From NCBI GenBank assembly GCA_041906785.1, contig JAYRIM010000017.1, positions 210-64,209 on the forward strand: DNA of 64,000 nt, written 5' to 3'. The notes below the pieces were generated by a model. It was not told where the DNA came from and did no database searches. It worked only from the letters and a program-made list of their open reading frames with translations. The DNA comes from Candidatus Levyibacteriota bacterium (GTDB lineage: Bacteria; Patescibacteriota; Microgenomatia; Levybacterales; UBA12049). A program made the position numbers and the translations under genes. Positions 6,645-59,424 of the stretch are shown here, piece by piece (the first letter of the stretch is position 1; each line of letters starts with the position of its first letter).

Positions 6645-6891
6645 CTCTTATCTCCTTGTGATCATCTGCGGCTGCTAATAGCCGCAAGTCGGTAAATAGT
6701 TTTTCGGCTTTCCTGGGGCACAGACAAAAAATAACAGTATTTACTTTCTCTCTGTACCACAGGAAATATGTAAAAGTGCCAAGAAGGTGTATATTATAGG
6801 ATAAACTCATCAATAAAACAAATAAGTGGTTAAGAAGTATAAATATACTTTCTGTGTTATCCTTTTATATTTTTCATTTTTTATATTGTTT

Positions 6892-7371: not shown

Positions 7372-7381
7372 ATACGAATTA

Positions 7382-7801
7382 CTACGAATGTAATCCTAAT
7401 CTATCCGAATCAGGCAGATTAAGAATCCTCTTATATTCTAGGCTACTTCCATAGAAATTAACAAGAATACCTAGCTCGAGACTGGTTGCATGCAAATATG
7501 CCTTTATCTGCTTATAATCATTTTTTGTAAATATGGGTTTTACTTTTAATTCAACAACTATTTTTTCATATAAAAGAAAATCTAAATAATATTTTCCAAT
7601 CCCCTCACCATCAATTTTTAGATCCACCATAATTTCCCTCTTGAAAGGAATTCTATATTTACGCAGTTTTACCTCGACGGCACGTTGATAATATTTCTCT
7701 TGGTACCTATTACCTAATTCATTATGAACTTCAAAAAAGATTCCTGTTATTATGTAACTCAACTCGGGATAAAGCACTTTTTTATCAATATTTGGATTCA
7801 T
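7382..7801 (-). CDS. GxxExxY family protein (PD-(D/E)XK-like 'IVS-type' protein)
   Basis: 139 aa. The family hallmark GxxExxY is present as YPELSYIITGIFFEVHNELG, followed by DFLLYEKIVVELK and GILVNF motifs. The gene is bounded by ATTCGGAT/ATCCGAAT inverted motifs. Confidence 0.8.
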   Translation of the reverse strand: MNPNIDKKVLYPELSYIITGIFFEVHNELGNRYQEKYYQRAVEVKLRKYRIPFKREIMVDLKIDGEGIGKYYLDFLLYEKIVVELKVKPIFTKNDYKQIKAYLHATSLELGILVNFYGSSLEYKRILNLPDSDRLGLHS

Positions 7802-7829
7802 TCGGATGTAATTTGTAGGAATTCGGATA

Positions 7830-8441
7830 TCAATAAACTGACCTTCCTTCTAAAGCTCTCGTTAATGTACTACTATCAGCATATTCTAAATCAGCACCAA
7901 TAGGCAAACCACGCCCAATTCTCGTAATTTTGAGATTTGAGTTTTGAGATTTGAGATTTTTTGCAATATACATAGCAGTTGCTTCACCTTCCATTGTCGG
8001 ATTCGTCGCCAATATAACTTCATTGACTCTTTGACTCCCTGTCTCTCTGACTCTCTGTATTAACTGTCCAATATAAATCTCATCAGGACCAATATTATTT
8101 AATGGATCGATTTTCCCATGCAGCACATGATATACTCCCTTATAATGACCGCTTTTTTCTAGAGCGAGCACATCTAACGGCTGTTCTACGACACAAATAG
8201 TAGTTTTATCTCGTTGTGAATCACTGCAAATTGAACACGGATCCATTTCATCTACTGAATAACAAGTAGAACATATAACGGTATTTTGTTTTAACTTTTG
8301 AACTGCAGAAGCAAATGAATCGAGCTCATGCTGTGGCACATGCAATAGGTAAAAAGTCAACCGTTGTGCAGATTTCGGTCCGATACCAGGCAATCTTTCA
8401 AATGATTCAATTGTGTTTTGTATTGCTTTAGGAATTTTCAT
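7830..8441 (-). CDS. recR: Recombination protein RecR
   Basis: HhH (LPGIGPKSAQRL), C4 zinc finger (CSTCYSVDEMDPCSIC) and Toprim (ILATNPTMEGEATAMY). Confidence 0.95.
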   Translation of the reverse strand: MKIPKAIQNTIESFERLPGIGPKSAQRLTFYLLHVPQHELDSFASAVQKLKQNTVICSTCYSVDEMDPCSICSDSQRDKTTICVVEQPLDVLALEKSGHYKGVYHVLHGKIDPLNNIGPDEIYIGQLIQRVRETGSQRVNEVILATNPTMEGEATAMYIAKNLKSQNSNLKITRIGRGLPIGADLEYADSSTLTRALEGRSVY

Positions 8442-8507
8442 AAAAATAAGCGTCTAGTAAAGTAGCGTTTAGCGTAAAGTCAAATTGTAAAAACTAAACG
8501 CTAATCT

Positions 8508-9464
8508 TTAAACGCTAGACGCTTTCAATTCTTCTGCTATCTTATCAGCTATAGATAAAATCTCAAACTTAGCAAATCGCCTCTCCGGTGGAACAACCAC
8601 AGCATCAGTTGCAAAAATATTTGTCACTTCTGACTCCTGTAAAATACTCACTGCTTTTTCAGAAAAAAGTGGGTGGGTTATGAAAATATATTGTTCTTCT
8701 ACTCCTAATTTTTTAATAAACTTTACAGTTTCGATAATCGAACCCCCGGAAATCATATCATCAACGATAAGTGCACGTTTCCCTTTCAGATTGGTTTGCG
8801 TTGGCCCAATCTCTCCTGATTCTTGTGGTCCTTCAAGATGATCGATTACTACCTTTCCTGTATCAAGGTTTCGATGTTTCAGTGTCGCAACCCATGGCAT
8901 GTTATTAAGCAGTTCTGATATCTTTTGAATTCTTCGTAACCCTCCCATGTCGGGAGAGATAAGAATCGAATTGGAATCATTCCATCCTCTTTTTTTAATT
9001 TCTTCTGCAAAAACTGGTAACCCAGACAGATGACTAACTGGAATAGAAAATAATTCTGGAACTTTTATTGTATGGAAATCAAAACTAATAAATCTATCAA
9101 CTCTCAATGTTTCTAAAATTTTTATAATTACTTCGAGAGATACAGCTTCTCCATCCCGAAATACATGATCTTGACGCATGTAACCCATATACGGCATAAC
9201 AACAGTTATACTGGTCGCGCCACTTCGTTTTAACGCATCAAGAATTAAGAATAACTCGACATAATGCTGATCAACGGGGGTATTTGTGCTTTGGATGACC
9301 ACAACATGCTCATCTACTACACGTTCTTGGATCTGAATTCGTCTCTCACCATCAGGAAAAATAAAAATTTCCATTGGAGAAATTTGTAAATCTAACGCCG
9401 CTACAACTTTTTCTGCGAGTGGTTTATTCGAACTCCCGCTAAAAATTTTCATGTTATAAGTCAA
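8508..9464 (-). CDS. prs: Ribose-phosphate pyrophosphokinase
   Basis: MKIFSGSSNKPLAEKV N-terminus, PYMGYMRQD, and the PRPP-binding loop LIVDDMISGGSI. Confidence 0.9.
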   Translation of the reverse strand: MTYNMKIFSGSSNKPLAEKVVAALDLQISPMEIFIFPDGERRIQIQERVVDEHVVVIQSTNTPVDQHYVELFLILDALKRSGATSITVVMPYMGYMRQDHVFRDGEAVSLEVIIKILETLRVDRFISFDFHTIKVPELFSIPVSHLSGLPVFAEEIKKRGWNDSNSILISPDMGGLRRIQKISELLNNMPWVATLKHRNLDTGKVVIDHLEGPQESGEIGPTQTNLKGKRALIVDDMISGGSIIETVKFIKKLGVEEQYIFITHPLFSEKAVSILQESEVTNIFATDAVVVPPERRFAKFEILSIADKIAEELKASSV

Positions 9465-10015
9465 TTAATTTTTTTAAACATCCAGATTTCATCCAAAAAT
9501 CCTTCTTGATAACGCACAGCTTGAGGCATCCTTCCTGCTTCTACAAATCCAAGTTTTTCATAAACATGATATGCTCTATCATTCGTACTATATACCTTCA
9601 AATCGACCATAGTAAAGCCTAACTTTTCTGCTTCCTTGAGTAAAAGACTTAATAATTCAGTACCAATACCCTGTCCTCTAAATTCCTTTGCAACTGAAAT
9701 GCCTATTCGTCCAATATGTTCATTTCTTTTTCCTCTTCGAGAAATTCCACAGTTTCCTATTAAAACACCATTAACAAATGCATATAAATGACAACCATTT
9801 CTCAGTTCCATCTCTTCAAGAACATGCGCTAAATATTCTGCTTCTTGTTGCTTCGTCATTACTTCACCACCTAATCGTAAAAATGTGTCTTCAGCACTCA
9901 GCAAATTGATATACCGCAAAATCTCATCAAGATCTTCCCACCTTGGGTAACGGACAATAACGTGATTATCCATTTTAGAGATGAAGGTATGTATAATTTT
10001 TCCAGTTTCAAGCAT
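9461..10015 (-). CDS. GNAT family N-acetyltransferase
   Basis: Acetyl-CoA motif A (RGQGIGTELL) and a GNAT beta-strand pattern. Confidence 0.8.
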   Translation of the reverse strand: MLETGKIIHTFISKMDNHVIVRYPRWEDLDEILRYINLLSAEDTFLRLGGEVMTKQQEAEYLAHVLEEMELRNGCHLYAFVNGVLIGNCGISRRGKRNEHIGRIGISVAKEFRGQGIGTELLSLLLKEAEKLGFTMVDLKVYSTNDRAYHVYEKLGFVEAGRMPQAVRYQEGFLDEIWMFKKIN

Positions 10016-44413: not shown

Positions 44414-47200
44414 TTGAGATTCTCTACGTACTTGACGAAATACAGTAAATGCCTCTACTATAGTGGTATGTCACCTTTTTTAGAAAAGTTACGCCATCAT
44501 AAAAGCCTAACGGTAAGTCTCTTTCTATTTTTATTTTTAACATTACCTCTTCTTATATATGTGTTACAACAGCGTCAAGACATCCGCCAAAGAGCTTCCG
44601 AACAAACAAGTGTAATAAATATTCAAGCTAAAGGTACACCTTGTGAGAATACCTATCCTACGTTAATACTTAAAACAGACGGTACTGAGATTAAAAGATG
44701 GGAAAATGTTGGAAATGTTTTACAAACGTACTCCTACAGCGGAAGTTTGCCAAGTAATATAAACAATATTGTTATAGAGTTTCCAAATGATTGTTATCAA
44801 GATACCAATGAGGATCGCAATCTTTATATAGAGTCTATAGAATTTAACAGTAAAAAAATCTCTGGCAACACAGCAGGTGTCATTAACACTGCCTCAGGGA
44901 CCGGTGAAAATAAAAAATGGCTTTTTACGAATGGAGCTTTGATTTTCCCCACACAATTATTTGCTGAATCTGAAGCTCCAGTACCAGTAGGTATATCATG
45001 CACTGCAACTCCTGCATCAGATACAATTCTTTCCATGAATATGACATCTCCATCCACTGATGATTCTAGACTTACTCCTGTTAAAAATGCTGGTAAAGCC
45101 TATGTCGATTATCTTGCCACTAATACCCAAAACTATGTAGGCCTAGTAAACTATTCAAGTGGACTTCTTACTCTTACTACTAATTATACAGAAGTGAAAC
45201 AAAGTATTGATTGGACACCAGCACGTACATATACGAATAATAAACTTGCAGATGCACTTGATTTAGCATTTCGTGTATTGATTACAAGCACCCGAACAAA
45301 TGTACCTAAAAAAGTAATACTATTTACTGCTGATAAACAAGATCCTGCTGATAATTCGAGATTAATTACAACAGCTGGCTATTTCCAAAATGGACGCGAT
45401 TGGCAAATTTATACAATCGGTCTTGGATCGAATATTGACGAAAACATTTTACAAACAATTGCTTCTACCACAAAAGGGAAATATTATCATGTAGACCAGA
45501 TTGATCAGCTACAGGATGCATACTTATCTATAGAAAAAGGTACTATAAGTGGATCGGTATTTAATGACCTAAATACCAATGGAATTCGCGACCAAGGTGA
45601 ACCTGGAGAGTTCAATTGGCCAGTACACGTTTACTCAACATCATCTCCAAATCAAGTCCTAGAAATTCTTAAAACTGATACCAATGGAAACTATTCATTT
45701 AAAAAGTTTTGCGCAGGTCAAACATATACCTTAAAACCTGTTCAGAAACCAGGTTGGCAACAAACCTTACCTGCAAATAATGAAGGGTATACAGTCGCAG
45801 TGACGAAAGATAGTGTGAATGCAGATAAGAATTTTGGATTTAAAGTTCTCCCTAGCCCTACACCATCGCCGACTATAACTCCAACACAAACTCCACAAAC
45901 AGGGTCTGTTGATGTTGATGTGAATATTATTGGCGGTACAATTCCCTCAGGAAAATATCTTAAACTTCTCGCATGTGATAAAGGTCCTAATGGACCGGAA
46001 TGCGGCACGGCAACGAGAGATATGAAAACTATCAATACTTCAGGAACCGTAATTCTTAGTAACATTCCAGCAGGACAGACTATAACTGATATGCGTATAG
46101 CATATTATAACCAGGCTGGAGACCAAAATTTGGGAACCTTACCGAATTGGGAGCAAGTATTCAGTGTTAGCAATTGTCCAAACGCCGGACAACTTACCTG
46201 TACTGTTGATGTACCTGCTGGGGGAAAATCTTTAACCAAACCACGGTATACAATTGATCTGTCAAAAACGCAAGTCTTTTCGAAAATTGAACCGATCAAT
46301 ACTGCTACAGTTACCTATGGTTCAACAAAGTTTTCCTGGACACAACATCAAAACACAATGTATCAGTTCTATATCATTGAATATTATAACGCAGCAGGTG
46401 TAAGAGTATACCAAACATCTACACCATCATTAACCCAAACAGAAACTACGATTGACCTTTCTACTGTTGTAAACCCTGAAACAAGTCAACGGGCGTTTGA
46501 AGCTGGTAAGGATTATTACTGGCAAGTGTTTGCTAATAATGGTGGCTCTTCACAGGATGTAGCAAATAATAATGAAAAATGGAAATTTACTATTCTTAAT
46601 GGAGAACCAACGAGAACTCCTACTGTAGATCCTTCACATAGTGTTACATTAAATATTAATCTTTATCTTCATGGTCTTGGTAATAGTGGAGATAATGTAA
46701 GTACCCAAAGTGCCTTAAGTAATAAAAATCCTAACCGTAAAGTTAGGCCTGCATTTGTCGAATTATTAAACAATCAGGGACAGGTAGTAACTGGAAACCA
46801 AGGGACGATAACATATGCTAGTGAAAGCGGAAGTTTCGCTGGTTCAGTCGTTGTAGGTATCCCTTCGACTACACAAACTGTAAATGGACCATATACAGTC
46901 AGAGTTAAGAGCGACCAATATGTCACAAATAGAGTTGCTGGTATATTCAGTTTTGATTCTGGACAATCATATACACTTCCAGATACCACGCTTACTACCG
47001 GTGATGTTATAAATGATAATAAATTAAATATTCTTGACTATAACGTGCTATATGGCTGCTATACAGGTAGTATTTTAACAGTCGCTCGAAATTGTAATGA
47101 AACGAAAAAAGCTGCTGCAGATCTTACTGATGAAGGTACTGTTAATCAATATGATTTAAATCTCTTCATACGAGAACTCTCCGTCCAATCCGGTTTCTAA
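44414..47200 (+). CDS. 928-aa surface protein: TM anchor, vWA-like, CnaB/SdrD-B-like, FN3-like, conserved C-terminal module and dockerin-like tail
   Basis: vWA-like ILFTADKQDPADNS...IYTIGLGSNID. GSVFNDLNTNGIRDQGEPGE. C-terminal LYLHGLGNSGDN...NKNP module. GDVINDNKLNILDYNVL...ADLTDEGTVNQYDLNLFIREL resembles two dockerin Ca-binding segments. Confidence 0.6.
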   Translation: MRFSTYLTKYSKCLYYSGMSPFLEKLRHHKSLTVSLFLFLFLTLPLLIYVLQQRQDIRQRASEQTSVINIQAKGTPCENTYPTLILKTDGTEIKRWENVGNVLQTYSYSGSLPSNINNIVIEFPNDCYQDTNEDRNLYIESIEFNSKKISGNTAGVINTASGTGENKKWLFTNGALIFPTQLFAESEAPVPVGISCTATPASDTILSMNMTSPSTDDSRLTPVKNAGKAYVDYLATNTQNYVGLVNYSSGLLTLTTNYTEVKQSIDWTPARTYTNNKLADALDLAFRVLITSTRTNVPKKVILFTADKQDPADNSRLITTAGYFQNGRDWQIYTIGLGSNIDENILQTIASTTKGKYYHVDQIDQLQDAYLSIEKGTISGSVFNDLNTNGIRDQGEPGEFNWPVHVYSTSSPNQVLEILKTDTNGNYSFKKFCAGQTYTLKPVQKPGWQQTLPANNEGYTVAVTKDSVNADKNFGFKVLPSPTPSPTITPTQTPQTGSVDVDVNIIGGTIPSGKYLKLLACDKGPNGPECGTATRDMKTINTSGTVILSNIPAGQTITDMRIAYYNQAGDQNLGTLPNWEQVFSVSNCPNAGQLTCTVDVPAGGKSLTKPRYTIDLSKTQVFSKIEPINTATVTYGSTKFSWTQHQNTMYQFYIIEYYNAAGVRVYQTSTPSLTQTETTIDLSTVVNPETSQRAFEAGKDYYWQVFANNGGSSQDVANNNEKWKFTILNGEPTRTPTVDPSHSVTLNINLYLHGLGNSGDNVSTQSALSNKNPNRKVRPAFVELLNNQGQVVTGNQGTITYASESGSFAGSVVVGIPSTTQTVNGPYTVRVKSDQYVTNRVAGIFSFDSGQSYTLPDTTLTTGDVINDNKLNILDYNVLYGCYTGSILTVARNCNETKKAAADLTDEGTVNQYDLNLFIRELSVQSGF

Positions 47201-47320
47201 TCTAAGATTGTTAGCTAGAGTTGCCAGATAAAAGTTACCACGTAAATGATATTCATACAAGGTAATAAACGATGGATGAAAAGCAAAAGTTGTTATCAGA
47301 CAATACTAAAAGTTTTGTAA

Positions 47321-47386
47321 CTTACTGACAACTGACCCGCTTCGACCTGTCGAAGACGAGGCGAGCAACCGACAACTGATAACTGC
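47321..47386. repeat. Solo copies of the cassette-3 IR word (ACCGACAACTGATAACT; GACAACTGA x2) plus a cttcg-acctgt-cgaag hairpin
   Basis: 17/18 match to accgactactgataact at 58303-58320. Confidence 0.5.
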
Positions 47387-47453
47387 TTCTTCTTGACACT
47401 CACCTCCGAACTCTCTACTATAAAAATAGAGCCTAGATAGGCGAAAATACTAT

Positions 47454-48071
47454 ATGAGAAAAACAGTTTTACTTATTGTGTTTTTAATGGTCGTTGCAAT
47501 GATACTATTATTCGTTGCATTAACTGCACCACGCCAGCAAAAAAAAACTACGGCAGAAAATACACCACCGACTCCAACTCCTATCGCTAGTACTGTTCTT
47601 ACATTTAATCCCAGAACAGTTACAGTAGACGAAAATGGCATTGGCTCTGTCTCTATTGAAATAGATACCGGCTATAACCAAGTCACAGGCGTTCAACTAG
47701 AATTAGGTTTTGATCAAAATACGTTAATAAATGTTAAAGCTACTCCAGGAACTTTTCTCCCCAAAGCGGTTGTTCTTTTAGAGAATACGTCTGTAGCTGG
47801 AAGATATTCATATATGCTTGGTTTGCCGCTTGCAGGTAACCCAGTTAACGGAAAAGGTACAGTAGCCACGGTTCAATTCCAGGCAAATCCTCTGAGAACG
47901 CCACAAGCACAAACGATATTAACTATTATGCCAAAAAGTCTTATTACCTCCCTTGGAGTTGAAGGTTCTGTTTTAAAAAAAGCTGATACATTGACTATAC
48001 TATTACCTCAACCTACCACAACCGTTCAGACACCTACCGGTACACTGGTCAATCCAACGACTCAACAATAA
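47454..48071 (+). CDS. Cohesin-like domain protein, paralog of 43752..44351
   Basis: VQLELGFDQNTLINVKATPGTFL, and GKGTVATVQFQ against GKGIVATIEFM in the paralog. Confidence 0.5.
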   Translation: MRKTVLLIVFLMVVAMILLFVALTAPRQQKKTTAENTPPTPTPIASTVLTFNPRTVTVDENGIGSVSIEIDTGYNQVTGVQLELGFDQNTLINVKATPGTFLPKAVVLLENTSVAGRYSYMLGLPLAGNPVNGKGTVATVQFQANPLRTPQAQTILTIMPKSLITSLGVEGSVLKKADTLTILLPQPTTTVQTPTGTLVNPTTQQ

Positions 48072-48075
48072 AGGT

Positions 48076-50109
48076 ATGAAATTACAATCATATGTAAACA
48101 GAAAGTTGATCTATGCTTCTCTATTGCTCCTTCCTCTGTTTCTTATTGTCTTTCAGTTAGTTACATTTCGCCAAGATCCACGAAGCCGCGCTACTGGTTC
48201 TGTCCGGTTATTTGTGAATCCTGAGTCTTCTTCATCAAATCCTATTAGAAAAAATTTGAATGAAACTGTCGAATTGAAGTTAATGCTCGATCCGGCACAA
48301 GCAAGCGTATCTGTTGTGAAGGTCGAACTTATATATAACACGACAAATTTGCAGCTAGCAGAGACAAACGGTGTACAGTTTAATACAAATGCTTTTCCCT
48401 CTATGATAGATGGACCAGTAGTCAGAGATGGAAAAGTAGCTTTTACCGTCAGTATCGGTGCTGATGCTACAAAAGCGATCACTTCACAAACAGAAGTCGC
48501 TACAGTGCGTCTAAAGACTCTCGCCACTACTACAAGTCCTTTAGAAATAAAGTATGGAGATAATAGTGTTGTTGTTTCAGTCGGACCAAGTGAAACATTA
48601 GATGATAATGTACTTGGCACAAAAGATTCTGCGTATATCGAAGTTGGAACAAATTTCCCGACAGGCGCTACCACACCAATTCCCCCACCTATTGGAGGTT
48701 GTCCTTATGACATCCCTGATGCTTCGGTTCCAATAAGTTTAGTTAATACAGGTTCTCAAGTCTGGGTAACAAATTATGACAATAATACTATTTCCAGAAT
48801 CGCATTGGATGGGTCAAAAGCAGGTGAAAGCCTTACTGAAAATGGTTTGAATGGACCTACAGGAATCGCTCTGATAGGAAACGAAGTATGGGTCGCAAAT
48901 TATGATAATAATACGATCTCTTTCTTTAATCTTGACGGTACGTCAGCAGCTTCTCCTTTGACACTTCCAAATAACTCAGATTCCCCTGAACAACGCGGTA
49001 TTTTAGGTTTCGCCAAAACAGATAATGAAGTTTGGTTAAGTGATCAAAAAAACAATGTCATTTTTAGACTCAAAACAGATAAACAGTTAGCTGGTGATCC
49101 TATTAAGATTCCAGGAATTGTAGGCATGAGATTTATTACAACAGTAGGCCAAGAAGTTTGGGTAGTCAGTAACCCGACATTAAACCCTTCAAGCGCTGAT
49201 GGAAAAATTTATCGATTAAAATTTGATGGGACAAGTGCTGGGTCACCAATTGTTAACAGCAAATTGATTAATCCAACACATATTCTCGCAGTAGGAAATG
49301 AGATTTGGGTAACAGATGAATTAGAAACCAATTTCGTTCGCTTTAAACAAAACGGTGATTTTATAGGGATCATAGATATGTATGAACTGGCATATGTAAA
49401 TAGTGGCATGGCTGTCGTAAATGGAAAAGTATGGATTATTGAAGGATTTGAAAATCTTATTAATATTCTTGATTCTCAGGGAAGAAACCTTTGCGGTAAT
49501 ATCGAACCGACAGTCTCCGTACGACCTACTCAGAATCCTGACAGAACAACACTTGAATTAAAACTCTTACTCCATGGCATTGGTAAAGCTGGAGATAATA
49601 CGAATCCCACCGGTAATTCATTTAGTAATAAGAATCCTGTTACACAAGAACGTACGATAAGTATTCAACTCGTAAATGAGGATAATGAAATTATTGCTAC
49701 GAAAATTGCACCAGCTTTTTATAGTAAAGACCAAGGGCTTTATTTTAGCAATGTGATTATAAATGATACTATTCCTACCGGTGACTATGTTGTAAAAGTA
49801 AAATCTGATGGATATTTACGGCAACTAATGCCTGGATTCTTTTCACTGCAGCCTGGTAAAAAGTTTGCTATGCCAGTTACACAACTTACAGCCGGAGATA
49901 TTAACGGAGATAATACGCTGAATGTGCTTGATTATAATGTACTCTATGATTGTGGGTACGGTAAAATTAATCCAAAACCGATGATTGATCCTGGATCAGC
50001 TTTTAAATCACCAGCTTGTCAATCACACGCCCAAAAAGAACTAGCAGATTTAACAGATAATGGTACGGTCGATAATAAAGATTATAATCTCTTCATCCGC
50101 GAGTTCTAG
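48076..50109 (+). CDS. 677-aa surface protein: TM anchor, cohesin-like domain, 6-bladed beta-propeller (YVTN/NHL-like), conserved C-terminal module and dockerin-like tail
   Basis: Six (V/I)W(V/L)(T/A/S)... blades (VWVTNYDNNTISR, VWVANYDNNTISF, VWLSDQKNNVIFR, VWVVSNP, IWVTDELETNFVR, VWIIEGFENLINI). LLLHGIGKAGDN...NKNP module. GDINGDNTLNVLDYNVL...ADLTDNGTVDNKDYNLFIREF. Confidence 0.6.
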   Translation: MKLQSYVNRKLIYASLLLLPLFLIVFQLVTFRQDPRSRATGSVRLFVNPESSSSNPIRKNLNETVELKLMLDPAQASVSVVKVELIYNTTNLQLAETNGVQFNTNAFPSMIDGPVVRDGKVAFTVSIGADATKAITSQTEVATVRLKTLATTTSPLEIKYGDNSVVVSVGPSETLDDNVLGTKDSAYIEVGTNFPTGATTPIPPPIGGCPYDIPDASVPISLVNTGSQVWVTNYDNNTISRIALDGSKAGESLTENGLNGPTGIALIGNEVWVANYDNNTISFFNLDGTSAASPLTLPNNSDSPEQRGILGFAKTDNEVWLSDQKNNVIFRLKTDKQLAGDPIKIPGIVGMRFITTVGQEVWVVSNPTLNPSSADGKIYRLKFDGTSAGSPIVNSKLINPTHILAVGNEIWVTDELETNFVRFKQNGDFIGIIDMYELAYVNSGMAVVNGKVWIIEGFENLINILDSQGRNLCGNIEPTVSVRPTQNPDRTTLELKLLLHGIGKAGDNTNPTGNSFSNKNPVTQERTISIQLVNEDNEIIATKIAPAFYSKDQGLYFSNVIINDTIPTGDYVVKVKSDGYLRQLMPGFFSLQPGKKFAMPVTQLTAGDINGDNTLNVLDYNVLYDCGYGKINPKPMIDPGSAFKSPACQSHAQKELADLTDNGTVDNKDYNLFIREF

Positions 50110-50112: not shown

Positions 50113-51759
50113 TCAGCTGAGTCGTTCATCTGTATGGAGTTTATATGTCTGACGTGTTGCCCATGCTTGATCGGCATACTGAAAAGGCAATAATTGTAAT
50201 TGACTAGGTACAACTCTACTCCCAACTAAAACGTCTTTAGGAACAGTTAATCCAGCAAATATCCGATCTGCTTTTCTTCCCGCCATATCTTGATACCAAC
50301 TATCTAAAATCTCTTCAATATTACCATCTCTGGCTACTACATGAGGCTGCTGTTTTTCTAGAAAAACTTCTCTTCTCCCTCCATTTCTAGGATAAAAAGC
50401 TGCCTCACGTAAAATATACGCTTTTGGATCAGCCATTATATTATTTTCTCTAACAAAATCATTTAATAAACCTCTATCGAAATAGGCACGCACTCTATAG
50501 ATATCTTGAGCTGTTTTTACTCTATCTCTGACTAGCCCAAAAAAGTTTTCAATCTCACCTTCATCTGCTCCATTAAAATGTAAAAGTAATAAATGACTTA
50601 ATGCATGTAGACGTTCTCGAATAGCAACATAGTACAAATCATGATCTAACAATGAGAGAGATTCATCAATAGCTTCTCCTTCAGACTGTCCCACGTTTCT
50701 CAGGGTAAATCCGCCTCGGAACGAATCGCGATAAGTAGCTATTAAATTCATTAAAGCTGCATCAACATCTTTTTGTCGTAAGACTTTCTCTAAAACTCCG
50801 CGTACACTTTTAGGAACTGCCTCCTGGGCTGCGATAGCGGTTTGGGCATCTGGAAAAAAATTCCCAGCTCGTAAAGCAGTACCCTGCCTAAAACGCTTAT
50901 TATAGTCAGACTCTCTTGTAACTTCCCCTAAAATGTTGTTACCAAATAAAAAAACAGGTGACGAAACATCACGAAGAAAAAAATCCTGGCTCATCGTCAC
51001 CATTTTCGCCCAGTATTCTCTATATCGAATATCCTCTGGGGTTAATACTCTATTCGGAGGGAATTCAGCATATGTTGCTTGTACGACAAGACGCTCTAAC
51101 TCACCAATCATAAATGGCGAAGCCATAGCACCTTGCGCACGAACTGTATGGTTCACAGCTCTATATGCTGTATTTTTCGCAATTGTATATATAGGTAATC
51201 CCAATGGTGTATATGGATGATATTCTGTAAACGCTCGGAGATCTCTTCTGTTATATATAGTCACACGCGAATTATGAATATCTTCTAGAAATGTTTCAAA
51301 AGATACTTCACTTTCATCCATTCTCAAAGCACCCTTTACACGATTGACAAGCCCAATCATATCTGCAGCTTGTGCATGGAAGCTTCGGAATTGGCGTTCC
51401 GTCGGTACATCTGCAATATTCTCGTCCAAAATATTTGCAGATACTGCTTCAGCAAGCCCATATGCAAAAGCAGCTTTTCCAACTGTATATCCATCGTTCC
51501 CATTAGTAGTTATTTCGTTCAGGCGAAAACAGAATGAAGCAAGTGAGTCCAAGTATCTCCTTTCTGATTCAGAAAAAGCTAATCGAGCAATTGAACCTTC
51601 GAGAGCATCAACAGTTGCCATTGCATCTTGTTTAAAACTAACCTGTGCTGCTTCAATATCAGCATTCTCTGGGGGTTTAAATAATGACGCGTCTCTTTGT
51701 AATAAATCATGCGGTAATGCTGATTCATCACCTTGTTGTATTCTTTCACTGATACTCAT
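50113..51759 (-). CDS. Hypothetical 548-aa protein (ORFan island gene A)
   Basis: Long clean ORF with slightly elevated GC. No recognisable motif. Confidence 0.4.
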   Translation of the reverse strand: MSISERIQQGDESALPHDLLQRDASLFKPPENADIEAAQVSFKQDAMATVDALEGSIARLAFSESERRYLDSLASFCFRLNEITTNGNDGYTVGKAAFAYGLAEAVSANILDENIADVPTERQFRSFHAQAADMIGLVNRVKGALRMDESEVSFETFLEDIHNSRVTIYNRRDLRAFTEYHPYTPLGLPIYTIAKNTAYRAVNHTVRAQGAMASPFMIGELERLVVQATYAEFPPNRVLTPEDIRYREYWAKMVTMSQDFFLRDVSSPVFLFGNNILGEVTRESDYNKRFRQGTALRAGNFFPDAQTAIAAQEAVPKSVRGVLEKVLRQKDVDAALMNLIATYRDSFRGGFTLRNVGQSEGEAIDESLSLLDHDLYYVAIRERLHALSHLLLLHFNGADEGEIENFFGLVRDRVKTAQDIYRVRAYFDRGLLNDFVRENNIMADPKAYILREAAFYPRNGGRREVFLEKQQPHVVARDGNIEEILDSWYQDMAGRKADRIFAGLTVPKDVLVGSRVVPSQLQLLPFQYADQAWATRQTYKLHTDERLS

Positions 51760-51791
51760 GAGTTTATTGTATAATAAACCACAAAGAAGAT

Positions 51792-52877
51792 ATGGAAGAA
51801 AACATAGTACTTACACCCTCTGTACCGATTCTTTGTATGAACCGAGATAAGGAAGCAATAAGGTTTGCTCTCGAACGTTTACGCTCAAGTGAACCTTCTT
51901 CAATTATTGGATTAGCTGGTTCAGGAAAGGATATTATTTTCTCTTCTTTAGTTGAAACTTTACAAAATCAACCATCGCATTACAAACTTATTGCAAAACA
52001 CTGTACATCAGTAGAAGACCTTCATGCACTTCTTAATGAAATAGAACAAGTAACTGCCTTTATAATTTGTATCATCAATTTTTCTCTGCAAGAAGATGCA
52101 TCCTGGTTTATTGAAAAATTGAATGAAATCCGTGAAAAAAGAGAGACACAATTTGTGAGTATCATTATCTCGTATATAAAACCAGTGCTCATATCTCTTC
52201 AACAAAAATCAAAAATCCTACTACGGTCTACGTACATCCTCACACCGATAACACAAGAAGATGCTGATTTTTTATTACGCGATTTCCAGCGTCGTTTTAC
52301 TTACAAACCTTCAGAAGAAGAAAAAAAAGAAATCTATTTTTGGAGTACCGGTTATGTGGGGTTATTTAAATCACTCTACCTTACAGCAAAGGACAATAAT
52401 TTTAAAAAATTTGATGAAGAATTTCTTATAAAGCAAGAACCTGTCTTAGTAAGGCTACAAAATATTTTTGATGATGTCTCTGAAGAACAATTTAGAAACG
52501 TTTTACAAAAACGTCTTTCAGAACAAGATGGATTCTTTCTTCAAAAGATAGGATTGATAGATGAATCATGTGAAATATATAATAAATTATTGAGACATTT
52601 CATTCTAGATAAAGTTCATTTGTCTCATAATGATCTTTCTTTATTACTAACTGAGAAGGAGTCACAAATATTTGCTTATTTTAAGCAACACGAAAATATT
52701 TTGGTAAAAAGAAGTAGTATTGCTGAAGTTATATGGAACGACTCTATTGAAGAGCATTACTCGGATTGGGCTATTGATCAATTTATTCATAAAATAAGAG
52801 AAAAAATGGTAAAAACAGCAAATCCATTTAAAATTATTACTAAAAAAGGCCAGGGTTTTATTTTTGTAGCTACATAG
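51792..52877 (+). CDS. Putative regulator: degenerate P-loop NTPase N-domain plus C-terminal OmpR/PhoB-type winged helix (island gene B)
   Basis: Walker-A-like IIGLAGSGKD. The C-terminal segment AEVIWNDSIEEHYSDWAIDQFIHKIREKM...IITKKGQGFIFV matches the trans_reg_C pattern (...VW....R.VD.HI..LR.K......I.TVRG.GY.F). Confidence 0.55.
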   Translation: MEENIVLTPSVPILCMNRDKEAIRFALERLRSSEPSSIIGLAGSGKDIIFSSLVETLQNQPSHYKLIAKHCTSVEDLHALLNEIEQVTAFIICIINFSLQEDASWFIEKLNEIREKRETQFVSIIISYIKPVLISLQQKSKILLRSTYILTPITQEDADFLLRDFQRRFTYKPSEEEKKEIYFWSTGYVGLFKSLYLTAKDNNFKKFDEEFLIKQEPVLVRLQNIFDDVSEEQFRNVLQKRLSEQDGFFLQKIGLIDESCEIYNKLLRHFILDKVHLSHNDLSLLLTEKESQIFAYFKQHENILVKRSSIAEVIWNDSIEEHYSDWAIDQFIHKIREKMVKTANPFKIITKKGQGFIFVAT

Positions 52878-52883
52878 TGACAA

Positions 52884-54602
52884 TTATTTAAGGGGTTCGG
52901 AGCCGTAACCAAGTTTAACAAATGGTATAACACACCAATTTCTTCTCAATTTATCAGCTAGTACAGGTAAAGCGACTGAGTACTGTTCTATCAATCGAGA
53001 CGAAATAGAATAATAGGGATAATATAATATCGCCATCCGTTTCCGAAGGTTATTAATACCTATACCTACGCTAAAATTTTCTACACCTTTTGATCGTAAG
53101 TATTGAAAAAACTCATCATCCGTTAATAATCCCCATTTTATGGGTAAATCATCCCACTCGATTTTAGCAATTTCTCTCCACTCTTCTTCAGAAAGAGGAT
53201 CACGAACGATTTCTTGAACGATAATTGGTAATGCTGCACCTGTAAATTGTTGTGGATCAGTAAAATTACCAGAAGAATCTACCACTCTACCTTCTTTTCT
53301 ATTTTTCCGTATCAAGCTAGCAGAGAGTTCTATGCTCCCAGGAAGATTTGCTTCTTCATATGAAAAAACAGTAAATGTTGGGATTTTATAGGGAGGATAC
53401 CCACCTTCTGAAACACGAATACATTCTTCGTCATGCTCACCATATGGATAGGTATGAACTGGGTTGTCAGATTCTAGCTTACCAGTTTTCTGTTTTTCTG
53501 TTTGCTCAACTGATTGACTGATGACTGACTCACTGCTTGCTGACAGCTGAGAACTGAAAACTGATGACTGATCAGGATGCATATTATTTAAGAACCCACT
53601 AAATGTACTTGTTAATAACAACATAAATCGAGTTTCCAACTCCTCTTCTGCTTGTTTGTTTCGTTCTTCCAAATATGGATAAACATTTTTAATTCTGCGT
53701 GCTATAGATGGATGCAGTTGCTCTTTCATGTCAGCAATTGCTTTCCAGAACGCTTTCGCAGAGTTTATATAATTTCTTCTCCAATCAAGTATAAATGCAC
53801 GTTTTTCAAATAGTTCCTTCACTTTTTCATCTCGTGCAATCTCTTCTGTTGAAATAATTTTTCCTTCTTTGACAAATCGTTCGATCGTATCAGATAAAAA
53901 TTCCTTCCCATTCTTCATTACATAATCGAAGACCCTATCGGTTTCTAAACCCATATACATATATCCAGTATGCGGATCAAAACTTATTTGGATTGCATGA
54001 ATTCGTTTTTCTTTTCCATATGTATTCTCCACAAAAAGCTTTGTCGCTTTTGCCATCTGCAACTTATGTGATACATCTGCAAATAATCCGGCATCTTGAG
54101 GATCACGGCCTTTTAATTGTTCTTCCTGGAAACGAGCTGCACAGCCGAGATGACTGTCAAATACTTCAACAATAGAATCGAGGTTAAAATCTGTATATGC
54201 GCGTTGAATATACCGAGCGAAGTCTGACTCTTCTTTTAGTTTCAATTGTCCATCTGTTCCTCGAACAAATTCCCGCAGAATACCGCCAGGAACCTTAATA
54301 CTACTTCCTATACCTGCTGATGCACCATGCATCAATACACGTAGTACACGGCCATCAATACAGAGATTCCAAAATATTTTAACCGGTAATAAACTATTTG
54401 CGAATTTCTTAATTTTTATATAGTCTTCAGAAGAAACTTCTTCCGCTCTTGCATTATTATCTTTTATAAAATCTTTGAAAAAATGACGGAGATAATCATA
54501 ATTCTCCTTAGCACGTGGATTTGGAAGAAGTTTATTATATGCCTCAAGCCGATCTATAAGCTGATCTATTTGTTTAAATAATGTTGACCCACCAGTAAGC
54601 AT
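52884..54602 (-). CDS. Hypothetical 572-aa protein (island gene C) with a beta-carbonic-anhydrase-like CxDxR...HxxC signature
   Basis: Cys81-Ile-Asp-Gly-Arg85 (NLCIDGRV), then about 70 aa on, IVEVFDSH151LGC154AA. The spacing and flanking beta-strand are consistent with the beta-CA zinc site. The rest of the protein is unassignable. Confidence 0.4.
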   Translation of the reverse strand: MLTGGSTLFKQIDQLIDRLEAYNKLLPNPRAKENYDYLRHFFKDFIKDNNARAEEVSSEDYIKIKKFANSLLPVKIFWNLCIDGRVLRVLMHGASAGIGSSIKVPGGILREFVRGTDGQLKLKEESDFARYIQRAYTDFNLDSIVEVFDSHLGCAARFQEEQLKGRDPQDAGLFADVSHKLQMAKATKLFVENTYGKEKRIHAIQISFDPHTGYMYMGLETDRVFDYVMKNGKEFLSDTIERFVKEGKIISTEEIARDEKVKELFEKRAFILDWRRNYINSAKAFWKAIADMKEQLHPSIARRIKNVYPYLEERNKQAEEELETRFMLLLTSTFSGFLNNMHPDQSSVFSSQLSASSESVISQSVEQTEKQKTGKLESDNPVHTYPYGEHDEECIRVSEGGYPPYKIPTFTVFSYEEANLPGSIELSASLIRKNRKEGRVVDSSGNFTDPQQFTGAALPIIVQEIVRDPLSEEEWREIAKIEWDDLPIKWGLLTDDEFFQYLRSKGVENFSVGIGINNLRKRMAILYYPYYSISSRLIEQYSVALPVLADKLRRNWCVIPFVKLGYGSEPLK

Positions 54603-54786
54603 AACTCTACCAATTGTTTATTATAGCAGCTTTTGTCTAAAACAGATAGACAAATCGGTCAGAATTAATTCAGAATCTGCTCAAGCTAATAGCTCAACTA
54701 TAGGTTATAGTACTCAAAAATAAAGATACTATTCTTACCATCCTGACATTTAAAGGGAAATTTAGTATACTTTACGTTTGTGAAAT

Positions 54787-56478
54787 ATGGCGCTACCAGA
54801 TCTAGAACGAATAATTCTTAGAAGAACTCAAGCTGAACATTTAAGAATTCACCAAAATGGTAAAGCTCGACTTGAAATCTCTGAGATTGGAGAAGCTACT
54901 CCTACAGGACACGAATTCCATGTGGCATTAGCGCAAGCTCTTGGTGAAGCTGTTCGTACAGATATAACAGCTGAGAATAGATATGAAGAGCAAATTATTG
55001 ATGGGCGGATGCAAAAACGACCCGGAGGGTTAGCTGCTTCATATTATCAAGAAGACAAAGTATTCGCTGAATCACTACCTGTACAACCCGATGGTAAACC
55101 CGCAGAATTTGCCGTAGCAGCACATTCAGATCTTCGAGGACCTGAAGTTGATGCTCTTATTGGTCTTGACTTCACTGTTAACGCAGGTAATGTACTGCTT
55201 GAGGCTCAACGTCACCGAATAAATATAGCTAGTATTGTCGGTGATGACTTCTATGATGTTGATGATGCTACACGCCAGAAGAAACTCGACGCTGTTCGAA
55301 CAGCAGTTATTACCCGAAAAGCGGAAGTGTTTACACAAAGGACCATTGACCATAGCCCAAGTGGAAATAGTAGGCTTGCAGAAGTTCGTGCACATGCAGG
55401 TCATTTGGAATGTGGCCGGTCGGATGGAGATAGAGCTCGTACACTCGCAGAATATATTGATTATGCAAATAGAGTTGTTGAGGATGGCGTTCAGAATATC
55501 TCTCCCTTTATAGATGCACGTGGCGGAAACGTTCTTGGCCTTGATCCAATCTACCGTGAACAAGGTAGAGCAGTTTTTAGAAGATACCCTTCAACCCAAG
55601 CTTATTATGAGGCTCATTGTGTCGATGATAATATGCCTAACGAAGCAGCAAGAGTAACAGGACAGTCAAAAAAAGCTAGACGGTTTAATGTAGACCATGA
55701 TTTCCCAAAGGATCCATCACTCCATGAAGGAACTGAAAACCGAACAATCTCTCATGAACATCATGTAGCAGTAATGGTCATCGCAGATAAAGATAGTGAG
55801 GCAGACCGAAAATTAGCTGCTGCAGCCGCAGCGAGAACAAATATGAGAACTAGCAGGGTAAATGATGGCTCGCAAGAAGAACAAGAAGCAGGATCAGCTG
55901 CTCTAGTCTTCCTTGACAGTGTAAAAAACCTGGAAGGGTATATGGCTGGCCTGCCAGGTTTAGCTCATGCAGTAGGTGCTGGCGGTGATACAAATAGACT
56001 AGGTCTATTAGCTTGGGGGGGTTCAGATATTTATGCCGCGCAAACAAAAGGAAAATGGAATACAGTTAGATGGCCACATATGACAGGTGTTGTCATCCAA
56101 GATAGGACTGAAGAAAAAGTGATATCTGTCGAGAGTAAAGAAGAACAACCAAAAATGCCTCTTGTCCTTGTCACAAGACAGGTTGTCGAAAAAATGGGTG
56201 GAAGAACAGCATTCCTCAATAGTATTGGCGTTGTTGACCCAGAACATCCTGAGGAAAATGAATACTTACAGACAGTTATGATAATTGATTCTGAAACAGG
56301 TGAAACACATAATTTATATACTGATCCACGAAAACCCACAAGAAATACAAACGAATTTCAACGGCAAACTGATCCAAATGTGACGGGAAGAGTATTTAGG
56401 GTATCACCTTATTTTCCTGATGAAATTGTAGTAGCTGATCCACGTAGGGCGCAACCTCGACAAATATTTGGAAGATAA
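54787..56478 (+). CDS. Hypothetical 563-aa protein (island gene D)
   Basis: Long clean ORF with higher GC than the flanks. No recognisable motif. Confidence 0.4.
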   Translation: MALPDLERIILRRTQAEHLRIHQNGKARLEISEIGEATPTGHEFHVALAQALGEAVRTDITAENRYEEQIIDGRMQKRPGGLAASYYQEDKVFAESLPVQPDGKPAEFAVAAHSDLRGPEVDALIGLDFTVNAGNVLLEAQRHRINIASIVGDDFYDVDDATRQKKLDAVRTAVITRKAEVFTQRTIDHSPSGNSRLAEVRAHAGHLECGRSDGDRARTLAEYIDYANRVVEDGVQNISPFIDARGGNVLGLDPIYREQGRAVFRRYPSTQAYYEAHCVDDNMPNEAARVTGQSKKARRFNVDHDFPKDPSLHEGTENRTISHEHHVAVMVIADKDSEADRKLAAAAAARTNMRTSRVNDGSQEEQEAGSAALVFLDSVKNLEGYMAGLPGLAHAVGAGGDTNRLGLLAWGGSDIYAAQTKGKWNTVRWPHMTGVVIQDRTEEKVISVESKEEQPKMPLVLVTRQVVEKMGGRTAFLNSIGVVDPEHPEENEYLQTVMIIDSETGETHNLYTDPRKPTRNTNEFQRQTDPNVTGRVFRVSPYFPDEIVVADPRRAQPRQIFGR

Positions 56479-57941: not shown

Positions 57942-57952
57942 TCAGTTATCAG
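57926..57952. repeat. Left inverted repeat of four-helix-bundle cassette 3 (gatcagtaatcagtagtcagttatcag); overlaps the murF stop
   Basis: Partner at 58290-58319 (ctgataactgattaccgactactgataact). Confidence 0.7.
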
Positions 57953-58280
57953 CTAAGGAACGCGAAAAAGCATTTATTTGCCTACCTAAAAATTTAAAAT
58001 CTTCTTGAAGGAGATCCGTATTAATTCCATATACAATTGCCACAACTTGAAGTAATGCAACCGTTTCATTTGCAGAACCTGAAGCAATTTGGAGATAATT
58101 TTGAAATTGCTTAGTTGACCTGCAGTACCCTTCAGTAATATTTGCAGCAACTGAAATTGCCGCTCGACGTATTTGATCAATCAGCGCAAAGTCTTTAAGT
58201 AACTGAGGATTGTTACGAGTTAAAATATATACTTCTGCGACTAACGCTAGAGCTTTCTTGTATATCTTCAACTTTTCCAT
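57942..58280 (-). CDS. Four-helix-bundle protein (TIGR02436 family), copy 3
   Basis: DQIRRAAISVAANITEG hallmark. Confidence 0.85.
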   Translation of the reverse strand: MEKLKIYKKALALVAEVYILTRNNPQLLKDFALIDQIRRAAISVAANITEGYCRSTKQFQNYLQIASGSANETVALLQVVAIVYGINTDLLQEDFKFLGRQINAFSRSLADN

Positions 58281-58289: not shown

Positions 58290-58319
58290 CTGATAACTGA
58301 TTACCGACTACTGATAACT
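58290..58319. repeat. Right inverted repeat of four-helix-bundle cassette 3; reaches the stop codon of 58318..59424
   Basis: See 57926-57952. Confidence 0.7.
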
Positions 58320-59424
58320 ACCTTCCTCCCTGGACTGACAATTCACGAATAAAGAGATTATAATCATAGTGATTTACTGTTCCCTCATCTGTTAAATCAG
58401 CCATATTCTTCTGCTCTGTTGTACAAGCTCTTGCTCGTGTAATAATCGTTCCAGTGTAACATCCATAAAGAATATTATAATCGAGAATATTTAGTTGGTT
58501 ATCAGTCACTACGTCACCTGTTACAAGAGTCATCGCAGGTAAAGAAACTGTTTGACCTGGGGTGAGAAGTTGTATTCCTGGAAAAGCATTTCGTAAATAC
58601 TGATCAGACTTCAATGTCACGATATAGTTTCCTTGTGTAATATCTGTGCCCAAATCTGCACTTCCTGTAAACGAACCGCTTTCTGAAGCATATTGCATCC
58701 GAGATGTAGCTATAGCGATACGTCTGTTTGCACTATCTAATACTTCTATCGAAACAGCCCTATCTTTTCTTCGAGGATTTTTATTACTTAAACTATTGGC
58801 ATTAGGGTTCGCATTATCTCCACTGTTCCCTAATCCATGAAGAAATATATTGTAATTTATCTGCACTAGCGGGCGCGGTGTAGGCGTAGCAGTCGGTTGC
58901 GGTGTCGATGATGGGTTTGGTGTTACTGTCGCTGATGGCCGAGGTGTGGCTGTTGGAATAGCTGTTGGCTGTGGAATATCTCTATCGTTTACATATGGGG
59001 TAGGAGTTGCTGACGGTTCACAACGGGTTTGAGTACAATCACTTGGGCAACTGCATGCATCTTCATTAAAGTCACATGTTCTATCACCACAATACGGAGC
59101 ACATGCATTTGATGTGCATGTACATATTACATCCCAACATCTCCAATCATATCCGCCGCACGGTGTAAATGAACACTGTACACCATAACTAATATGCCCT
59201 AGGGTTGAACAAGAGTTACCAGTATTACCTGAATCACCATCAGTTGAAATGTTTGTCTCTGAACAACGAGGGTTATCACCACCTACACAGCTATAGTATT
59301 TTGTTCCGCACGCTTGAGCAAAAACTGAAGGAATATTTTGAAATACAAAAATAAACAGGATAATAAAAAAAACTACAAATCTCATGCTTTCTTCCACTGT
59401 AGCATTGAGGAAAAGAAGTGTCAA
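58318..59424 (-). CDS. Secreted Cys-rich protein with PT linker, conserved C-terminal module and dockerin-like tail
   Basis: Signal/TM at the N-terminus. A 30-Cys N-domain. The (TPxPSAT)n linker. IFLHGLGNSGDN...NKNP module. GDVVTDNQLNILDYNIL...ADLTDEGTVNHYDYNLFIREL. Confidence 0.55.
   Translation of the reverse strand: MTLLFLNATVEESMRFVVFFIILFIFVFQNIPSVFAQACGTKYYSCVGGDNPRCSETNISTDGDSGNTGNSCSTLGHISYGVQCSFTPCGGYDWRCWDVICTCTSNACAPYCGDRTCDFNEDACSCPSDCTQTRCEPSATPTPYVNDRDIPQPTAIPTATPRPSATVTPNPSSTPQPTATPTPRPLVQINYNIFLHGLGNSGDNANPNANSLSNKNPRRKDRAVSIEVLDSANRRIAIATSRMQYASESGSFTGSADLGTDITQGNYIVTLKSDQYLRNAFPGIQLLTPGQTVSLPAMTLVTGDVVTDNQLNILDYNILYGCYTGTIITRARACTTEQKNMADLTDEGTVNHYDYNLFIRELSVQGGR

Follow-up and report, generated by a model that had tools for sequence, protein, structure and literature searches.

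The A-D region

The DNA considered here (the window) is a 64,000-nucleotide stretch of contig JAYRIM010000017.1 from a Candidatus Levyibacteriota bacterium (GCA_041906785.1), in which four long open reading frames (ORFs), designated A to D, occupy positions 50113-56478. Gene A (50113-51759, minus strand) encodes a 548-aa soluble protein with an HD-like helical N-terminal part (approximately aa 33-300) and an α/β C-terminal part (approximately aa 310-541) that resembles the synthetase domain of RelA/SpoT homolog (RSH) enzymes. A divergent spacer of 32 nt (51760-51791) separates A from gene B (51792-52877, plus strand), whose 361-aa product joins a P-loop-like N-terminal domain (GxGK[D/R], aa 41-48) to an OmpR/PhoB-type winged helix (aa 272-358). 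Gene C (52884-54602, minus strand) encodes a 572-aa protein predicted to adopt a pseudo-dimeric β-carbonic anhydrase (β-CA) fold resembling that of CsoSCA. A second divergent spacer, AT-rich and 184 nt long (54603-54786), bears a promoter-like site for D (CTGACA-17-TATACT at 54743-54771) and is followed by gene D itself (54787-56478, plus strand), which encodes a soluble, acidic orphan of 563 aa with native codon usage. All four proteins are predicted to be soluble and acidic. The opposite strands of these genes carry short ORFs only, and the four frames are too long to have arisen by chance in a sequence of 38% GC. The junctions in the region measure 3 and 6 nt, with the stop codons of C and B lying 6 nt apart. 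A VWA/CBM/dockerin protein, a cohesin-like protein and a dockerin-type protein are encoded on one flank, and a Mur ligase (murF) on the other.

The original prediction, made from the nucleotide sequence alone, gave the coordinates, lengths and strands of the four ORFs, the extents of both spacers and the placement between a dockerin-protein locus and murF, and each of these is reproduced exactly. The same prediction regarded the region as a candidate for one horizontally acquired module. With slightly better than even confidence, the region as a whole is best explained instead as a composite of a backbone gene (C), a rare two-gene cassette (A-B) and an orphan (D).

Gene C and the carbonic anhydrase fold

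The C family comprises 95 homolog clusters of similar length, 26-72% identical to C and all unnamed or annotated as hypothetical; where a source organism is given, it belongs to Levybacteria, Uhrbacteria or other Patescibacteria. No match to C was found in Pfam, NCBIfam, PADLOC or the sequences of the PDB. The protein carries the motifs NLCIDGRV and FDSHLGCAA, which had been likened to the zinc ligands and Asp/Arg dyad of β-CAs, and the residues at issue (Cys81, Asp83, Arg85, His151 and Cys154) are indeed invariant in an alignment of 50 homologs reaching down to 27% identity. A GG loop and an HxxCGA-like context are also conserved in the family, and the same alignment contains further invariant residues at R52, A156, D170, G213, H390, E392, R435, W490 and P560. 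A profile of the family compared with the PDB finds a β-CA as its best match, weakly (expectation value, E, 0.086) and aligned on the CxDxR...GG block.

The AlphaFold 2 model of C (pLDDT 92.1, pTM 0.90) consists of three N-terminal helices (aa 4-71), a catalytic lobe (approximately aa 72-270; nt 53793-54389), a helical middle section, a disordered linker (aa 347-378) and a C-terminal lobe (approximately aa 383-572; nt 52887-53456), the last of which is degenerate and contains the invariant H390, E392, R435 and W490. Every PDB entry that Foldseek matched to this model at E<=1e-3 is a β-CA, as is nearly every entry in the top 50. The list is headed by carboxysomal CsoSCA from Cyanobium (8thm; E 1.6e-7, template modelling (TM) score 0.57 on the target), followed by 1ddz (E 3.9e-6) and 2fgy (E 6.5e-6). 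Full-length matches are limited to CsoSCA (8thm and, from Halothiobacillus, 2fgy and 9g4t, with 612-630 aligned columns and TM scores of 0.50-0.57 on the target) and to the tandem-duplicated enzyme 1ddz from Porphyridium, while single-domain β-CAs follow at E 5e-4 to 1e-2. The resemblance proposed from the motifs is thus borne out by the fold search, in which all significant matches are β-CAs and the best is CsoSCA. The family conserves a single Cys2His set, in the first lobe; in the C-terminal lobe no Cys/His zinc triad is conserved. On its modelled fold, C is a previously unannotated variant of the CsoSCA-type pseudo-dimeric β-CA, specific to the candidate phyla radiation (CPR), in which one chain would supply two β-CA lobes and the first lobe alone would keep the Cys2His zinc site and the Asp-Arg dyad.

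CsoSCA, the β-CA of α-carboxysomes, formerly assigned to an epsilon class (PDB 2FGY, 8THM and 9G4T; PF08936), is the best full-length structural match to C, and the two share a helical N-terminal domain, a catalytic β-CA lobe and a degenerate second lobe, with a single Cys2His site and Asp-Arg dyad per pseudo-dimer. The possession of one zinc site per pseudo-dimer is a defining feature of CsoSCA (Pulsford et al. 2024, PMC11086599). Unlike CsoSCA, C gives no sequence match to PF08936, displays the canonical HxxC spacing of its zinc ligands, bears a long helical insert and disordered linker (aa 271-378), and is accompanied by no cso shell or Rubisco genes in the flanks of the window or at approximately 20 homolog loci. 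A non-carboxysomal ("non-cso") orphan cluster with hydrogenase or permease neighbours is nevertheless found inside PF08936 (Pulsford et al. 2024), and neither it nor C resides in a carboxysome operon. The setting of C differs from that of this cluster too, being that of CPR/Levybacteria with F420_ligase-like, murF and cohesin/dockerin neighbours.

Canonical β-CAs are homodimers or homotetramers of approximately 200-aa chains with one site per lobe. Those matching Pro_CA (PF00484), typified by E. coli Can and H. influenzae HICA, share with C the CxDxR...HxxC motifs, the GG loop and the α/β fold. The enzyme from Porphyridium purpureum (1DDZ) shares two β-CA lobes per chain, of which both keep their zinc sites whereas C keeps one. 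Identity between C and the canonical enzymes or 1DDZ is 9-20% at best.

Several results weigh against this assignment. C matches no curated CA model at E<=1 (Pfam Pro_CA PF00484, Pro_CA_2 PF20393 and CsoSCA PF08936), and among 50 family members one matches Pro_CA_2 (E 0.0026) and the others match no curated CA model, so that, as judged by sequence, the family lies outside every one of them. A search for internal duplication likewise detects no sequence similarity between the two lobes of C, a condition shared with CsoSCA. Read from its fold and invariant residues, the function of C would most likely be cytosolic interconversion of CO2 and bicarbonate, or else hydrolysis of a related small molecule, with no carboxysome involved. 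A literature search for CsoSCA or carbonic anhydrase in CPR bacteria returned nothing relevant.

Genomic setting of C

Twenty other C-family loci, denoted here by L numbers, were compared by clustering all neighbouring ORFs. With arrowheads giving the direction of each gene and C read rightwards, the Levybacteria-type backbone is <murF (<403-425-aa unknown) C> F420_ligase-like> <cohesin <dockerin <dockerin, and the window reads <murF <D C> <B A> <dockerin <cohesin <dockerin, such that the A-B pair takes the position usually held by the F420_ligase-like gene. At L015, murF directly adjoins C, and the closest relative, L001 (C 71% identical), has the same flanks without A, B or D. Among the neighbours of C homologs there are no homologs of A, B or D even at E<=10; 16 non-redundant C loci are without them, and distant C homologs occur in other housekeeping contexts, beside formyltransferase and TGT genes (L007, L008) or a flavokinase gene (L009). 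From this conserved backbone, the loci free of A, B and D and the housekeeping contexts, it follows that C belongs to the genomic backbone of Levybacteria-type CPR bacteria, has been inherited vertically and is not part of an island. When the window is compared with its syntenic relatives, A-B and D show presence/absence polymorphism and C does not.

Several other features of these loci deserve mention. A 248-aa F420_ligase (PF01996; CofE-like) directly follows C at approximately 10 loci (L004, L006, L013-L015, L017-L020), with a gap of 18 nt in L006; at the A-B loci L011, L024 and L026 it follows A, and it has been lost from the window. The organisms concerned are not known to make F420, and an F420_ligase is an odd partner for a carbonic anhydrase. 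Tandem duplicates of the C family (C> C>) are present in two Levybacteria-type genomes (L014, approximately 6058-9617, and L017, approximately 1279-4615), the upstream member of each pair having diverged far more. The Levybacteria-type backbone and C family are also found in L013, L016 and L018-L023, which are contigs of GTDB representatives from third-party-annotation (TPA) binchicken assemblies; their titles, "uncultured Gammaproteobacteria bacterium", look like placeholder taxonomy. The conserved cluster of cohesin-like, dockerin-type and VWA/CBM proteins (window 44414-50109 and 58318-59424), a cellulosome-like surface-protein locus, flanks C at 12-14 loci (L001, L006, L013-L022) and seems typical of this CPR lineage. 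Lastly, a gene for a 23S rRNA-intervening-sequence protein (PF05635, E 2e-23; window 57942-58280, minus strand) abuts the murF stop with no rRNA gene nearby, and a homolog of it is also found near C in L004.

Gene A, a probable remote relative of RSH enzymes

A word-index homology search with A returned only A itself, while an exhaustive HMMER search of 1.84 billion cluster representatives recovered 14 relatives of 467-600 aa at 26-31% identity. The resulting family has invariant residues at D259, R289, K317, R422 and R536 and near-invariant ones at Y100, E232, W250, L323, D419, R424 and Q522. Although no Foldseek match of A is significant, the top three are Rel catalytic domains, RelP and SAS2 (E 0.19-0.35); small alarmone synthetases and CapRel, a tRNA pyrophosphokinase, are among its structural neighbours. 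Comparison by hhalign of the C-terminal half of A with the RSH synthetase domain (E. coli RelA and SpoT) gives a P-value of 0.007 and a probability of 5.5%. That alignment is collinear, placing D419-x4-R424 on DVRAVR/DIYAFR (Syn2), E-x-Q on EIQIRT (Syn4) and the next helix on the AAHWxYK helix, and an alternative alignment places PKSVxGxLxK on PKHIYSIWRK (Syn1). The Syn1-, Syn2- and Syn4-like motifs are conserved in the A family and collinear with those of E. coli RelA/SpoT, within a weak profile match, and into them fall three of the invariant residues (K317, R422 and R536) and three of the near-invariant ones (D419, R424 and Q522). Where A was originally said to show no motif assignable to a known family, there is a weak resemblance to RSH enzymes, carried by the Foldseek top three and the hhalign P-value. 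A probably belongs, very remotely, with the RSH-like proteins and would share with RelA a pseudo-hydrolase domain, its degenerate HD-like domain being followed by one resembling a nucleotide pyrophosphokinase.

This relationship has a number of points against it. The similarity is weak, given that the best Foldseek E is 0.19 and the hhalign probability only 5.5%; none of the 15 family members matches Pfam RelA_SpoT (PF04607) or HD (PF01966/PF13328) at E<=1; and the family profile finds no match among PDB sequences. The family lacks the HD dyad, having no invariant His, as well as the GYQSxHT acceptor motif (Syn3), an insert of approximately 95 residues separates its Syn1-like motif from the Syn2-like one, and A of the window has Gln520 at the position of the catalytic Syn4 Glu, which is a Glu in 12 of the 15 homologs. 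The HD dyad is missing from RelA as well. Compared with the RSH enzymes at large (Rel, RelA, SpoT; RelQ/YjbM, RelP, CapRel), A has no TGS/ACT regulatory domains. A direct match of the HD-like half of A to the SpoT/RelA hydrolase domain was also sought and is not significant. A literature search for RSH enzymes in CPR bacteria returned nothing relevant.

Gene B and the divergent A-B pair

B was originally described as a GLAGSGKD-bearing NTPase-like domain coupled to a C-terminal OmpR/PhoB winged helix; the GLAGSGKD sequence is present, and the winged helix is confirmed. The Trans_reg_C domain (PF00486) is matched at aa 284-358 with E 5.7e-11 and 42.8 bits against a Pfam cut-off of 26.2, the B-family profile matches winged-helix domains of the PDB at E 1e-6, and NCBIfam matches are confined to the C-terminal ~85 residues (aa 270-360). 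The order of the domains, held to be unusual for a regulator, is not so: a C-terminal winged helix-turn-helix occupies the normal OmpR/PhoB position, and what sets B apart from OmpR/PhoB transcription factors is that the receiver is replaced by a P-loop-like (GxGK[D/R]) domain of approximately 270 aa, possibly related to STAND NTPases. There is no Response_reg match in B, and no cognate histidine kinase is encoded nearby. Within the N-terminal ~270 aa, G43, G45 and K46 of the GLAGSGKD motif are invariant and are followed by D or R rather than S/T, and an E101-D102-x-S-W motif is also invariant. This domain has sub-threshold matches only, to nSTAND3 (E 0.039) and NB-ARC (E 0.081), a weak point of the overall reading. 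B may be viewed as a DNA-binding regulator with a P-loop-like nucleotide-binding domain in place of its receiver, one that probably controls both promoters of the divergent pair.

Every A homolog with a readable contig and upstream sequence has a B homolog divergently upstream of it, at five loci besides the window (L010, L011, L012, L024 and L026); that of L010 is 35% identical to B over its full length (E 1e-79). The A/B spacers are 22-56 nt long, and five of the six loci (the window, L010, L011, L012 and L024) share a core, T(T)ATTATAC(A/T)ATA, which in the window is TATTGTATAATA at 51765-51776. On the B strand this core corresponds to T(T/A)GTATAAT, a -10 box of the extended or consensus type (TGTATAAT at 51768-51775 in the window), and the start codon of A lies 2-20 nt beyond the core (6 nt in the window). 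We infer from this arrangement overlapping, mutually exclusive divergent promoters or an operator, giving near-leaderless transcripts in a layout that would lend itself to autoregulation by B. Over the region, promoter-like matches are no more numerous than shuffled expectation, and neither the A/B nor the C/D spacer matches an Rfam family in a search for riboswitches and structured RNAs.

Together A and B make up a rare, fast-evolving two-gene cassette inserted beside C. A pattern scan found no relatives of B in 185,579 GTDB species representatives or in JGI metagenome contigs, and the A-family alignments are too divergent for back-translated pattern scans to be used.

Association of A-B with carbonic anhydrase-fold genes

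The arrangement C> <B A> of the window recurs in L024, from a different study, as C> <B A> F420lig> <cohesin, with C 45%, B 38% and A 27% identical to their counterparts. At L011 the order is <Pro_CA_2 (64-aa ORF) <B A> F420lig>, the same backbone with a small CA-fold gene where C would be; L010 reads <504-aa gene, Pro_CA_2> <95-aa ORF <B A> ... typA, and L012 reads <B A> Pro_CA_2> enolase. L025 and L026 are too short for the CA neighbourhood to be judged. A β-CA-fold gene is therefore found within one gene of the A-B pair at all five informative loci, and the arrangements are of at least four kinds. Each of the three Pro_CA_2 proteins (120-131 aa) bears the complete SCIDFR...AGG...HExCGAYG signature, and their genes all lie in the 27.8 kb of A-B loci with none in 247 kb of other sequence (P ~1e-3). 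Pro_CA_2 (PF20393, "putative carbonic anhydrase") shares with C the CIDxR, GG and HxxCGA signature and the partnership with A-B and, unlike C, is a minimal single lobe of approximately 120 aa; the C-family profile gives no significant match to these small proteins (E ~0.09 at maximum sensitivity), and a literature search found no biochemical characterisation of Pro_CA_2. The dependence runs one way, in that C is common without A-B while A-B was never seen without a CA-fold neighbour where the flank was sufficient.

The unannotated 504-aa protein of L010 (2789-4303, minus strand) contains GCMDGR...LPGG...FAHAEC and HREE...SERGNPP, which align in the same order with the two conserved blocks of C. 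The likeness is at the level of motifs (9 bits), and the protein is probably a long-form relative of C at a very great distance.

The varied arrangements of A-B and CA genes favour a functional link over synteny that was simply inherited, albeit in a small and partly non-independent sample, and A-B is probably coupled functionally to CO2/bicarbonate chemistry through the CA-fold partner. One possibility as to the nature of this link, read from gene order and co-occurrence, is a nucleotide signal whose production or sensing would respond to inorganic carbon, or which would act on the CA-fold protein. Certain features of the data weigh against such coupling. The association rests on five loci, two of which share their arrangement by descent; the other A-B loci are drawn from six sequencing runs (Logan assemblies), four of them in one accession series; and the occurrence of C without A-B in most genomes means that any coupling is not obligatory.

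The adjacency might instead be a product of history, whereby C, A-B and D are unrelated and the A-B pair landed once beside C in an ancestral Levybacterium, where it has persisted. The C backbone remains strongly syntenic even at 42-55% identity of C, so selection need not be invoked for C-B-A to have persisted in the window and L024; moreover, L011, L024 and L026 share the F420_ligase flank, the slots on both sides of C vary (the 403-425-aa gene or D on one, F420_ligase or A-B on the other), and most C loci are without A-B. This account appears rather unlikely when set against L010 and L012, which lie in different contexts (typA and enolase) and still have a β-CA-fold gene beside the pair, against the three positions and orientations of Pro_CA_2 relative to A-B and its replacement of C beside B in the otherwise unchanged backbone of L011, and against the enrichment of Pro_CA_2 genes at A-B loci.

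An unlikely alternative of a different kind casts A-B as a conflict or defence module, in which a toxic RSH-like (toxSAS-type) effector would be paired with a STAND-like NTPase/winged-helix sensor-regulator in variable genome regions, with no relation to carbon chemistry. The small alarmone synthetases and CapRel among the structural neighbours of A fit this idea, as do the sub-threshold nSTAND3/NB-ARC matches of B, the rare, patchy and fast-diverging nature of the cassette (27-31% identity, with no relatives in GTDB representatives or JGI contigs) and its occupation of a slot polymorphic for presence and absence. It is countered by the want of any PADLOC match or of phage or PHROG relatives of A, by the native codon usage, by the missing catalytic Glu of A in the window, and by the neighbours themselves, among which no small antitoxin-like gene is consistent and the β-CA-fold gene is the only consistent one.

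A further reading, compatible with the composite picture, is that C combines the β-CA fold and metal site with another function, as a carbonyl sulfide (COS)/carbon disulfide (CS2)-type hydrolase or a ligand sensor. COS and CS2 hydrolases of the β-CA superfamily use the same Cys2His/Asp-Arg site, and C has invariant residues outside the canonical site (R52, D170, H390, E392, R435 and W490), large helical additions, no match to a CA sequence model and an apparent operon with the F420_ligase-like gene at approximately 10 loci. The canonical motifs are nonetheless all conserved, the GG loop and HxxCGA-like context among them, the nearest structures are true CAs and no sulfur-metabolism genes lie nearby, which makes such a departure from carbonic anhydrase activity improbable.

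The boldest form of the coupling is quite speculative and improbable. A-B and the β-CA-fold protein might together form an undescribed inorganic-carbon/nucleotide-signalling module, in which A would act as a divergent RSH-type pyrophosphokinase whose product binds the second lobe of C (H390, E392, R432, R435 and W490) or Pro_CA_2 and switches its activity. The same nucleotide would be sensed by the degenerate P-loop of B, which would autoregulate from the divergent promoter. A parallel exists in cyanobacterial CsoSCA, which is activated and switched by ribulose-1,5-bisphosphate at the defunct second lobe (PMC11086599).

Gene D, composition and the island question

A word-index search of 5.8 billion proteins returned only D itself, by a method less sensitive than exhaustive comparison that also missed the relatives of A at approximately 30% identity. 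D has no match in Pfam, NCBIfam, PADLOC, PHROG, the PDB, phages or plasmids, and no relative at any locus compared. Since the same kind of search had called A an orphan before exhaustive HMMER found its 14 relatives, the status of D is provisional and holds at that sensitivity. Of the three proteins originally termed ORFans, the description can be kept for D alone, on this less sensitive search, and does not apply to C with its 95 homolog clusters or to A with its remote homologs. In relatives the D slot, between C and murF, holds an unrelated gene of 403-425 aa or nothing. D is a lineage-specific orphan in a variable slot, outside the association of A-B with β-CA genes. The 403-425-aa family has no Pfam match and lies divergently upstream of C at L001 (1937-3205), L006 (4692-5903), L016 (3176-4459) and L018 (6650-7861). 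Descent of D from this slot family was considered and rejected (profile E 8.6), as was paralogy of A and D, for which BLASTP found nothing. A phage or plasmid origin was similarly rejected, there being no tblastn match for A or D in phages or for D in plasmids and no PHROG match for A, C or D, and PADLOC recognised no defence system in the region.

Composition was judged against the 52 long ORFs of the window, which have a mean GC of 0.378 (standard deviation (sd) 0.041) and a mean GC at third codon positions (GC3) of 0.266 (sd 0.058). D (0.427) and A (0.391) are slightly above the GC mean, and the GC elevation originally attributed to the region is marginal. The excess is confined to codon positions 1 and 2, GC3 is under the window mean in all four genes (A 0.234, B 0.216, C 0.247, D 0.229) and synonymous-codon-usage distances of all four are below the window mean, which denotes native codon usage. 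The GC excess of A and D thus reflects amino-acid composition and not foreign DNA. A codon-usage profile had been proposed as a check, and it gives no compositional sign of recent transfer; nor does the region contain mobility genes, an adjacent tRNA (none lies within 5.8 kb) or flanking repeats beyond the level expected by chance. The strongest compositional outlier among the 52 ORFs lies elsewhere, a 165-aa frame at 6147-6644 (minus strand) with GC 0.545 and GC3 0.606. It has no Rfam RNA match; candidate explanations are foreign DNA, a so far unrecognised gene for an RNA, and an ORF that is spurious.

The proposal of a single four-gene unit fares no better than that of its foreign origin, as D has no counterpart at any locus examined and C occurs without A, B and D at 16 non-redundant loci. 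Co-occurrence, also raised in the original prediction, is upheld in part: the order C-B-A recurs in the independent L024 and the A-B pair is kept beside a β-CA-fold gene, and D never co-occurs with them. A horizontally acquired, self-regulated island A-B-C-D, favoured by the contiguous and divergent arrangement of the genes, by the closest syntenic relative without A, B and D and by the recurrence of C-B-A in L024, is therefore very hard to sustain against the backbone status of C at approximately 20 loci, the failure of D to appear beside the others elsewhere, and the native GC3 and codon usage with no integrase, tRNA or repeat boundaries.

Concluding remarks

The genomes of CPR bacteria (Patescibacteria) are rich in proteins annotated as hypothetical, and little is known of how these bacteria handle inorganic carbon. 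What is new here is a CPR family of CsoSCA-type β-CAs outside the curated models, together with a very divergent RSH-like family that has a dedicated regulator; the repeated adjacency of A-B to β-CA-fold genes was not found described in a literature search. The reading of C given above would provide a concrete function for a conserved family of 550-aa proteins. It would also place the single-site pseudo-dimer of the CsoSCA type, known mainly from carboxysomes, in non-autotrophic ultra-small bacteria, which bears on how this carbonic anhydrase architecture evolved before or outside carboxysomes. With the A-B pair, the RelA/SpoT superfamily would gain a very divergent branch from a lineage whose stringent-response machinery has been little studied, and the adjacency of the pair to CA-fold genes suggests a link between CO2/bicarbonate and nucleotide signalling.

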